Positions 51,890-52,241 of a DNA stretch of 61,488 nt are shown one piece after another. Within the stretch, counting starts at the first letter, position 1; the number at the start of each line of letters is the position of its first letter. Source of the DNA: a virus (taxonomy: Duplodnaviria; Heunggongvirae; Uroviricota; Caudoviricetes); the IMG/VR virus record IMGVR_UViG_2908567220_000003; one strand, written 5' to 3'. The translations under genes and the position numbers were made by a program. A model generated the notes under the pieces. It was not told the origin of the DNA, did not search any database, and saw only the letters and a program-made list of their open reading frames with translations.

Positions 51890-52066
51890 TCATTCATCGC
51901 CCCACTCATCACAATATGCTTCGACCGGAGTTTTTCCTGCTTCATAATCATCACGCCATGCTTCAGCATCAGCAGCACTGCCACCACGTAACTCTGCATA
52001 GTCCATTAACAGTTCATGCCATTCTTCAATACTGACGTTGTATTTAGTTGAACCAAAATCAGCCAT
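51890..52066 (-). CDS. small acidic protein
   Basis: 58-aa ORF (MADFGSTKYN...CDEWGDE), ATG overlaps stop of upstream acidic ORF. Confidence 0.4.
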   Translation of the reverse strand: MADFGSTKYNVSIEEWHELLMDYAELRGGSAADAEAWRDDYEAGKTPVEAYCDEWGDE

Positions 52067-52241
52067 TTTGTTCTTCCTCTTCGTCTTTTATTTCGTGATA
52101 TGAGTAGTTGCAGTAGTTAAAGAAAATATCTTTTGCTTCGTCATGTATTTCATCAGGCGTCGCATCATCATCCACTTCGAATTCATCCTCGAAATCTCCA
52201 CCGGCTATTCCCGTTTCAATAATTATTTTAAACTTTCGCAT
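52059..52241 (-). CDS. small highly acidic protein
   Basis: 60-aa ORF rich in D/E (DDDATPDEIHDE, DEEEEQNG). Confidence 0.4.
   Translation of the reverse strand: MRKFKIIIETGIAGGDFEDEFEVDDDATPDEIHDEAKDIFFNYCNYSYHEIKDEEEEQNG

Follow-up and report, generated by a model that had tools for sequence, protein, structure and literature searches.

The window, meaning the whole stretch of 61,488 nucleotides that was analysed, contained a lambdoid prophage of the Qin/Rac type with tail and lysis genes, a Q-type antiterminator, tRNAs, hokD/sok, DicF, dicB, an integrase gene, and a large RecE-like exonuclease gene. The two genes under study, referred to here as orf60 and orf58, lie on its minus strand. 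Along that strand, a pR-like sigma-70 promoter match (TTGACT-18-TAAACT, 55033 to 55062), found by consensus scan in the cI/cro-like divergent region, is followed by a cro-like gene, a ydaT-like gene, a replisome organizer gene (53211 to 54287, from the ORF list with a profile match), a DUF977 or "Ren-like" gene (52745 to 53170, matching the PHROG family "Ren-like exclusion protein"), and a gene for a basic zinc-ribbon protein of 118 aa (52335 to 52691; PHROG 1621, WP_000403785.1). Next come orf60, orf58, a frameshifted ead/Ea22-like relic of the PHROG 660 type (51636 to 51893), sok, and hokD, and the next terminator-like consensus match on the strand past the pair lies at 50744 to 50727. Because of this gene order, running from the pR-like match to the terminator-like site, the pair is placed in the predicted delayed-early rightward (pR) operon, just after the replication genes and at the position of lambda ren/nin. 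The original prediction had put the pair in the early region of the prophage, and the same-strand cro-like, ydaT-like, replisome organizer, and DUF977/Ren-like genes upstream bear this out, the promoter and the terminator being consensus matches. The consensus match and the gene order point to the pR-like promoter as the probable origin of the transcript reaching orf60 and orf58.

The immediate neighbours of the pair were also examined. Upstream, 93 nt lie between the zinc-ribbon gene and orf60. It often accompanies orf60 and orf58, and the same trio of zinc-ribbon, DUF7167 (the family of orf60, see below), and orf58 genes was found in the lambdoid prophage, in the ead/Ea22 region of the Stx phage ArgO145 (with one additional small acidic gene inserted), and in a 91-kb phage-plasmid-like replicon. 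Downstream, the start of the ead/Ea22-like relic overlaps the stop of orf58 (ATGA). The equivalent of the relic in a 99.8%-identical genome is labelled "frameshifted; internal stop" by PGAP, and an intact counterpart of 211 aa is present in ArgO145.

The coordinates of the two genes were confirmed exactly as two minus-strand ORFs of 60 aa (orf60, 52059 to 52241) and 58 aa (orf58, 51890 to 52066), both with ATG starts and overlapping by 8 nt (52059 to 52066, ATGGCTGA), with the orf58 start lying over the orf60 stop. They had also been described as extremely Asp/Glu-rich, and they were indeed the two most acidic ORFs of the window. Asp and Glu account for 20 of the 60 residues of orf60 (33%; net charge -15, pI 4.05) and 16 of the 58 residues of orf58 (28%; net charge -12, pI 4.05). 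The window has 206 ORFs with an ATG start and a length of at least 50 aa (mean Asp plus Glu content 7.3%, standard deviation 5.5%), and only these two reached a content of 25% or more. Their G+C contents were 37% and 44%, respectively, versus 50.6% for the window. In the RefSeq/PGAP annotation of the 99.8%-identical genome, orf60 is WP_001224662.1, "DUF7167 family protein," and orf58 is WP_000753060.1, "hypothetical protein." Pooled pN/pS was 0.11 for orf60 (37 distinct alleles) and 0.10 for orf58 (28 distinct alleles), while the same calculation on a shifted-frame control gave values of >2. Of 5,426 complete E. coli genomes, orf60 DNA was present in 1,362 (25%) and orf58 DNA in 1,904 (35%). 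Both are genuine, conserved protein-coding genes of mobile elements.

The original prediction recognised no family for either protein, and on this point it was superseded. The orf60 protein matched Pfam DUF7167 (PF23768) with 55.1 bits (cut-off 24.4; E = 7.9e-15) over profile positions 1 to 60 of 60 and PHROG 1997 with E = 9e-31 over positions 1 to 57 of 57; by these profile matches, it is assigned as a full member of DUF7167/PHROG 1997. The orf58 protein matched PHROG 519 with E = 6.8e-21 at positions 76 to 137 of the 143-position profile only, that is, the C-terminal part. No NCBIfam match was obtained for either protein and no Pfam match for orf58, and Pfam scans of 66 members of the orf58 family gave only noise. 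The public names of the clusters containing the two proteins were all "hypothetical," "prophage protein," or "DUF7167" and carry no functional information. Literature searches on DUF7167, on both WP accessions, and on RcbA/DUF1187 returned nothing relevant. Thus, both families are already catalogued with function unassigned, and orf60 and orf58 are ordinary but very widespread early accessory genes.

An exhaustive phmmer search for DUF7167 yielded 99 cluster representatives at 50% identity, nearly all of them stand-alone proteins of 50 to 60 aa. Two natural tandem duplications were found among these representatives, a hint that the protein may dimerise, as known mimics do. A profile-driven scan of IMG/VR returned near-identical E. 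coli copies only. As the more diverse alignment held no stretch conserved enough for a search, a degenerate DNA pattern was used in its place.

For structure prediction, alignments of 66 (orf58) and 65 (orf60) sequences were supplied to AlphaFold2. The orf58 protein was modelled as a three-helix bundle (helices at 13 to 27, 34 to 42, and 47 to 55; pLDDT 88.1) ending in a conserved DEWG motif. The orf60 model (pLDDT 88.4) consisted of a beta-hairpin (strands 2 to 8 and 17 to 23) and a helix (29 to 43), followed by a less confident acidic tail. Each protein is thus confidently predicted to be a tiny folded single domain. A sequence search against all PDB chains gave no match for orf58 and only chance matches for orf60 (E of 0.15 or worse), and no solved structure and no known DNA mimic was found to resemble either predicted fold. 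In all diverse members (66 of the orf58 family and 65 of DUF7167), the net charge was between -4 and -18 and the pI was 4.9 or lower, and several alignment columns in the two families were almost always Asp or Glu. Strong acidity is therefore a conserved trait of each whole family.

Both families were found on mobile elements only, comprising temperate and virulent phages, the phage-plasmid-like replicon, and IncI2 plasmids. DUF7167 genes were found without orf58 in Enterococcus Herelleviridae and in Klebsiella, Pseudomonas, and Phapecoctavirus phages. In Klebsiella phage VLCpiS11a, the DUF7167 gene overlaps the start of an exonuclease gene, and in the Enterococcus phages it follows an exonuclease gene. 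Single loci placed it within a GamL-RecT-Gp157 operon, between gyrase and ligase genes, near an SSB gene, and downstream of a DnaB helicase gene immediately after a Tad5 homologue, Tad5 being a phage protein that inhibits ThsB of the Thoeris system (PMC13402655). In temperate phages of Gram-positive hosts, genes for an Erf-like annealing protein and a DnaD-like loader precede it, and its relative position there matches that of orf60 in the window. These contexts are anecdotal, as they come from about 15 diverse loci and from regions that consist mostly of function-unassigned genes anyway. One DUF7167 phage already has GamL, which would make RecBCD a redundant target in that phage. A Qin-like cryptic prophage has a DUF7167 gene interrupted by an internal stop and lacks an annotated orf58, a decay that fits a benefit to the phage and not to the host.

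The orf58 family was present in 201 phage records (Ackermannviridae, KP34-like, and P22-like) and in 561 plasmid records, of which 516 were conjugative and most were IncI2, about 420 of them at 80 to 90% identity. Hundreds of conjugative IncI2 plasmids carry a homologue with 86% identity; one of them is pHNSHP45, an mcr-1 plasmid with this backbone type. The IncI2 gene order is a CaiF/GrlA-type regulator, a DUF1187/RcbA-like gene, and the orf58 homologue, which heads a long operon running into type IV secretion genes. No obvious leading-region anti-defence island was seen around it. Proteins of 127 aa that appeared to be DUF1187-orf58 fusions were considered as a Rosetta-stone link and rejected as frameshift artefacts. 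Among phages, the homologue lies in a small-gene cluster after the capsid gene in Ackermannviridae (Det7 gp16, Menlow gp075), with a metallophosphoesterase gene on one side and further DNA-metabolism genes on the other in a KP34-like podovirus, and directly after an ead/Ea22-like gene in a P22-like phage. At a metagenomic locus, it directly follows DUF3799 and RecT genes.

The gene boundaries were conserved as cassette junctions. At the overlap, orf60 ends in CAA AAT GGC TGA and orf58 begins with ATG GCT GAT, and a GAGG Shine-Dalgarno-like element for orf58 is situated 9 nt before its ATG, within the Glu codons of the orf60 tail. The 8-nt overlap ATGGCTGA suggests translational coupling of orf60 and orf58. 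The two genes were adjacent with an overlap of -8 in 158 of the 159 IMG/VR loci that hold both, although these loci are near-identical E. coli copies and hence not independent observations. The IncI2 plasmids keep the same overlap after a different upstream gene, DUF1187, and the overlap therefore belongs to the orf58 cassette. Upstream of orf60, the unusual leader (52248 to 52270) consists of AGGAGG (52265 to 52270), a hairpin (52248 to 52265) with a 7-bp GC stem and a GAAA loop, TAGTTAA, and the ATG at 52241. According to the computed fold, 24 nt separate the Shine-Dalgarno sequence from the start codon as long as the hairpin is not formed. The leader was kept in 34 variants (165 loci), even with a different upstream gene, and in one variant the stem was doubly compensated, which points to a possible function of the leader. 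At the 3' end, the junction GDE-stop/ATGA/MSE(I/V)(D/N)YQ opens into ead/Ea22-like or DUF551 genes, and in phiSTEC1575-Stx2k a 25-codon 3' relic of orf58 abuts such a gene.

The original prediction treated the two genes as a pair. They are adjacent and overlapping, but the term does not extend to a functional unit, since the two families are distributed independently. The data support two independent accessory cassettes lying side by side, with no obligate pairing.

With regard to function, it is proposed that each protein would act stoichiometrically, which is the most likely mode because a catalytic site would not fit into proteins of this size. The acidic surface would bind the positively charged nucleic-acid-binding surface of a protein of DNA metabolism and block it, making each protein a nucleic-acid-mimic inhibitor. 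The most likely targets would be DNA nucleases of the host or defence proteins directed at DNA, of the RecBCD/AddAB or restriction type (compare T7 gp5.9, lambda Gam, and T7 Ocr), because in unrelated phages both families are encoded next to genes for exonucleases, annealing proteins, Gam, SSB, and replication. The two proteins would probably act separately, on different targets. The reading that orf60 and orf58 are stoichiometric, charge-driven inhibitors of DNA-binding proteins, possibly of host nucleases or defence systems, was given a probability of roughly 0.4.

The points in favour of this inhibitor reading are the conserved acidity, the Ocr-like charge density, the distribution on mobile elements only, and the occurrence in early replication and recombination clusters. 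A small size combined with high acidity is known to characterise DNA-mimic inhibitors, among them gp5.9 and Gam, which are small, dimeric, highly acidic DNA mimics with unrelated folds (PMC9836394). The original prediction suggested DNA mimics that counter restriction or other defences; a DNA-mimic or anti-defence role of this kind would fit the measurements and is plausible for both orf60 and orf58. Besides the GamL and IncI2 contexts described above, a point against it is that hhalign detected no resemblance in sequence or profile to Ocr, gp5.9, gp5.5, Gam, or Ral (probabilities of <8%). The same held for the complete comparison sets, which covered lambda Orf60a, Orf61, Orf63, Ea8.5, Ea22, Gam, Kil, CIII, Ea10, and Ral; T7 Ocr and 16 other small T7 proteins, including gp2, gp5.5, gp5.7, and gp5.9; and RcbA, RalR, YdaE, RacC, KilR, YdaF, and YdaG of the Rac prophage. 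Known DNA mimics are mutually unrelated, and homology to one of them is not strictly defining. Small proteins of acidic character may also serve as chaperones, adaptors, or regulators. A more specific form of the idea is that one or both proteins represent new DNA-mimic counter-defence families. In its most striking version, DUF7167 would inhibit the host double-strand-end nucleases RecBCD/AddAB, or else a nuclease of restriction or defence, across phages in general; it would be conserved in phages of Enterococcus and Lactococcus as well as in E. coli prophages and be a structural alternative to gp5.9 and Gam, and orf58 would be a second mimic shared between phages and IncI2 plasmids. This more specific form is considered unlikely.

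The surroundings of the genes would also suit accessory factors for the phage's own replication and recombination machinery (exonuclease, annealing protein, SSB, or replisome organizer) with no part in counter-defence. Both families lie inside or directly after replication or recombination modules in unrelated phages, orf60 and orf58 come after the replisome organizer in the window, and a precedent exists in P22 Arf, a small acidic accessory recombination protein whose mechanism is unexplained (PMC9836394). However, no constant partner was observed, the neighbouring enzyme being variously an exonuclease, RecT, gyrase, SSB, or DnaB. In addition, members of the orf58 family were located beside the IncI2 type IV secretion genes and after the Ackermannviridae capsid gene, with no recombination module near. 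A role of this kind was judged fairly unlikely.

A regulatory function in the lysis-lysogeny decision or in host physiology, comparable to that of Orf60a, Orf61, Orf63, Ea8.5, and Ea22 of the lambda exo-xis region, was considered improbable. The genes do occur among ead/Ea22-like genes, in a region of the exo-xis type, in ArgO145, the phage-plasmid-like replicon, and the P22-like phage, and an ead/Ea22-like relic lies downstream of orf58 in the window. The exo-xis genes are early genes that affect lysogenisation (PMC7093339, PMC3824215). Against this, hhalign found no homology to the lambda exo-xis proteins and Ea22 (probabilities of 1.3% or lower), the Ead_Ea22 Pfam family was likewise not matched, and strictly virulent carriers of the two families (Ackermannviridae, Autographiviridae, Herelleviridae, and Phapecoctavirus) make no lysogeny decision.

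It was also considered whether orf60 and orf58 form a single functional unit, as a heterodimer or two-component module whose stoichiometry is fixed by the overlap. This would account for their adjacency, for the identical -8 overlap in nearly all two-gene loci, and for their joint movement among lambdoid prophages, Stx phages, and the phage-plasmid-like replicon. The two-gene loci, however, are the near-identical E. coli copies noted above, and the counts of complete E. coli genomes with orf58 and orf60 DNA differ (1,904 versus 1,362). An orf58 homologue was found without DUF7167 in IncI2 plasmids and in Ackermannviridae, KP34-like, and P22-like phages, and no orf58 homologue lay beside DUF7167 in the examined Enterococcus, Klebsiella, Pseudomonas, and Phapecoctavirus loci or in some enterobacterial prophages. 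Furthermore, the overlap occurs after another gene in IncI2 plasmids, and two strongly acidic proteins are unlikely to be mutual partners. A single unit is accordingly very unlikely, and an obligate heterodimer was rejected on distribution.

A benefit to the host was rated highly improbable, whether through prophage defence or superinfection exclusion or through an acidic antitoxin paired with the basic zinc-ribbon protein. In support of the former, the genes occupy the post-replication position taken by ren in lambda, and the neighbouring DUF977 protein matches a family of Ren-like exclusion proteins; in support of the latter, the basic 118-aa protein is encoded just upstream. Searches of PADLOC-DB, however, returned 0 families for orf60, orf58, the zinc-ribbon, DUF977, and ydaT-like proteins, and a 92-aa ORF, both families occur in virulent phages, and the genes are pseudogenised in the cryptic Qin-like prophage. 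The zinc-ribbon gene is 93 nt away from orf60, is separated from it by the extra gene in ArgO145, and is missing from most contexts of either family. A toxin-antitoxin system with the upstream zinc-ribbon protein was rejected on distribution. Finally, the notion that the two are spurious or decaying functionless ORFs, which might be raised because both are very short and have a biased composition, their expression being predicted from sequence, is effectively refuted by the selection signal (pN/pS of about 0.1 versus >2 out of frame), and it is further opposed by homologues spanning phyla of phage hosts, confident AlphaFold2 models, and conserved start and overlap signals.

Both genes are very common in E. 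coli prophages and also occur in Stx-converting phages, and the orf58 homologue is carried by hundreds of IncI2 plasmids. If either protein is a DNA mimic or anti-defence protein, it would add a widespread counter-defence family and help to explain the movement of phages and plasmids between strains, and the new mimic families would span phages of Gram-positive and Gram-negative hosts as well as IncI2 plasmids. The DNA-mimic idea is a reasonable and cheaply testable hypothesis for what are typical uncharacterised early accessory genes.

Three known systems invite comparison with orf60 and orf58. Ea22 and the small exo-xis proteins of lambda resemble them in size and, given the predicted early operon of orf60 and orf58, in early expression, and orf60-orf58 cassettes occur among ead/Ea22-like genes in Stx phages, P22-like phages, and the phage-plasmid-like replicon; however, orf60 and orf58 are not homologous to these proteins, and their families extend to virulent phages. 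T7 gp5.9, an inhibitor of RecBCD and MukBEF, shows no sequence similarity to orf60 or orf58 (hhalign, 1.2% or lower), and it forms a coiled-coil dimer (PMC9836394), whereas a beta-hairpin with a helix is predicted for orf60 and a three-helix bundle for orf58. Nevertheless, gp5.9, with 52 aa compared with 58 to 60 aa, is likewise a highly acidic, non-essential early protein, and its gene is immediately upstream of and overlaps exonuclease gene 6, as the DUF7167 gene does with an exonuclease gene in VLCpiS11a. In net charge per residue, orf60 (-0.25) and orf58 (-0.21) are comparable to T7 Ocr (-0.24), while gp5.9 has a value of -0.15. The likeness to Ocr and the ArdA-type anti-restriction mimics extends to their setting, with all of them encoded by early genes of mobile elements, conjugative plasmids included.

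The boundaries of the gene for the 58-aa acidic protein, orf58, behaved as conserved cassette junctions. The sites were located at 52059-52066 and 51890-51896 of the window, and in other genomes at 1298-1305 of locus L008 and 1501-1600 of L234. In IncI2 plasmids, the identical ATGGCTGA start/stop overlap was found at the orf58 homologue, there following a DUF1187/RcbA-like gene. At the other boundary, the 3' end of orf58 was followed by ATGA and "MSE(I/V)(D/N)YQ", leading into either ead/Ea22-like or DUF551 genes, and in phage phiSTEC1575-Stx2k a 25-codon relic of the orf58 3' end lay directly against an ead/Ea22-like or DUF551-type gene. 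In the window, the neighbor 3' of orf58 was a frameshifted relic of an ead/Ea22-like (PHROG 660-type) gene, represented by an 85-aa basic ORF (51636-51893, minus strand). The equivalent locus was annotated as a pseudogene by PGAP, while an intact 211-aa version was present in the Stx phage ArgO145.

On the other side of the acidic pair (orf58 and the 60-aa DUF7167 protein, orf60), the minus-strand gene at 52335-52691 encoded a 118-aa basic protein of PHROG 1621, with a zinc-ribbon motif matching the TFIIB-type Pfam family weakly and an Arg/Lys/Glu-rich C-terminal stretch. This gene was carried together with the acidic pair by three different kinds of replicon. In ArgO145, a gene for a third small acidic protein, gp16 (70 aa, net charge -7; 4101-4313 of locus L002), was inserted between the zinc-ribbon and DUF7167 genes. 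Small acidic genes accumulate in this region.

In the orf60 leader (52241-52270, minus strand), AGGAGG was followed by a 7-bp GC stem, capped by a GAAA tetraloop, and then by TAGTTAA-ATG. Unless the hairpin forms, the start codon is 24 nt from the Shine-Dalgarno element, an arrangement that suggests a "split" ribosome-binding site. The leader was kept in 34 variants, including those where the upstream gene was a different one, and in one variant the stem was doubly compensated (GCCACCC/GGGTGG).

Among DUF7167 relatives, P0237 (105 aa) and P0245 (129 aa) from metagenomic phages (locus L177) were natural tandem duplications of the domain, and the single-domain proteins may for this reason work as dimers. 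In another metagenomic phage (L181, 3573-4183), a Pfam-identified homologue of Tad5, an inhibitor of Thoeris ThsB, overlapped the start of the DUF7167 gene by 4 nt, a single case of DUF7167 beside a known anti-defence family.

In the Qin-like cryptic prophage of E. coli TB06053 (L190), where, as in K-12 Qin, the region adjoins relBE, ydfV and flxA, the DUF7167 gene was interrupted by an internal stop. The orf58 homologue there (88% DNA identity) was unannotated. These observations point to decay after a prophage becomes defective.

Elsewhere in the window, Rfam matches to DicF RNA (56903-56954, plus strand), the sRNA STnc100 (44120-44309, minus) and two tRNA genes (45009-45258, minus) fit a Qin-like prophage. 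Just 3' of the early operon lay a hokD-type toxin ORF (50813-50968, minus) with its sok antisense RNA (50966-51137, minus; RF01794). A 523-aa IS66-family transposase was present in two plus-strand copies (35397-36968 and 48792-50363), and ahead of each lay a 216-aa ORF similar in length to the IS66 accessory protein. The latter copy was flanked by the hok region on one side and the DUF968 gene on the other, and the IncI2 plasmid pHNSHP45 likewise carries an IS66 element adjoining a hok gene.
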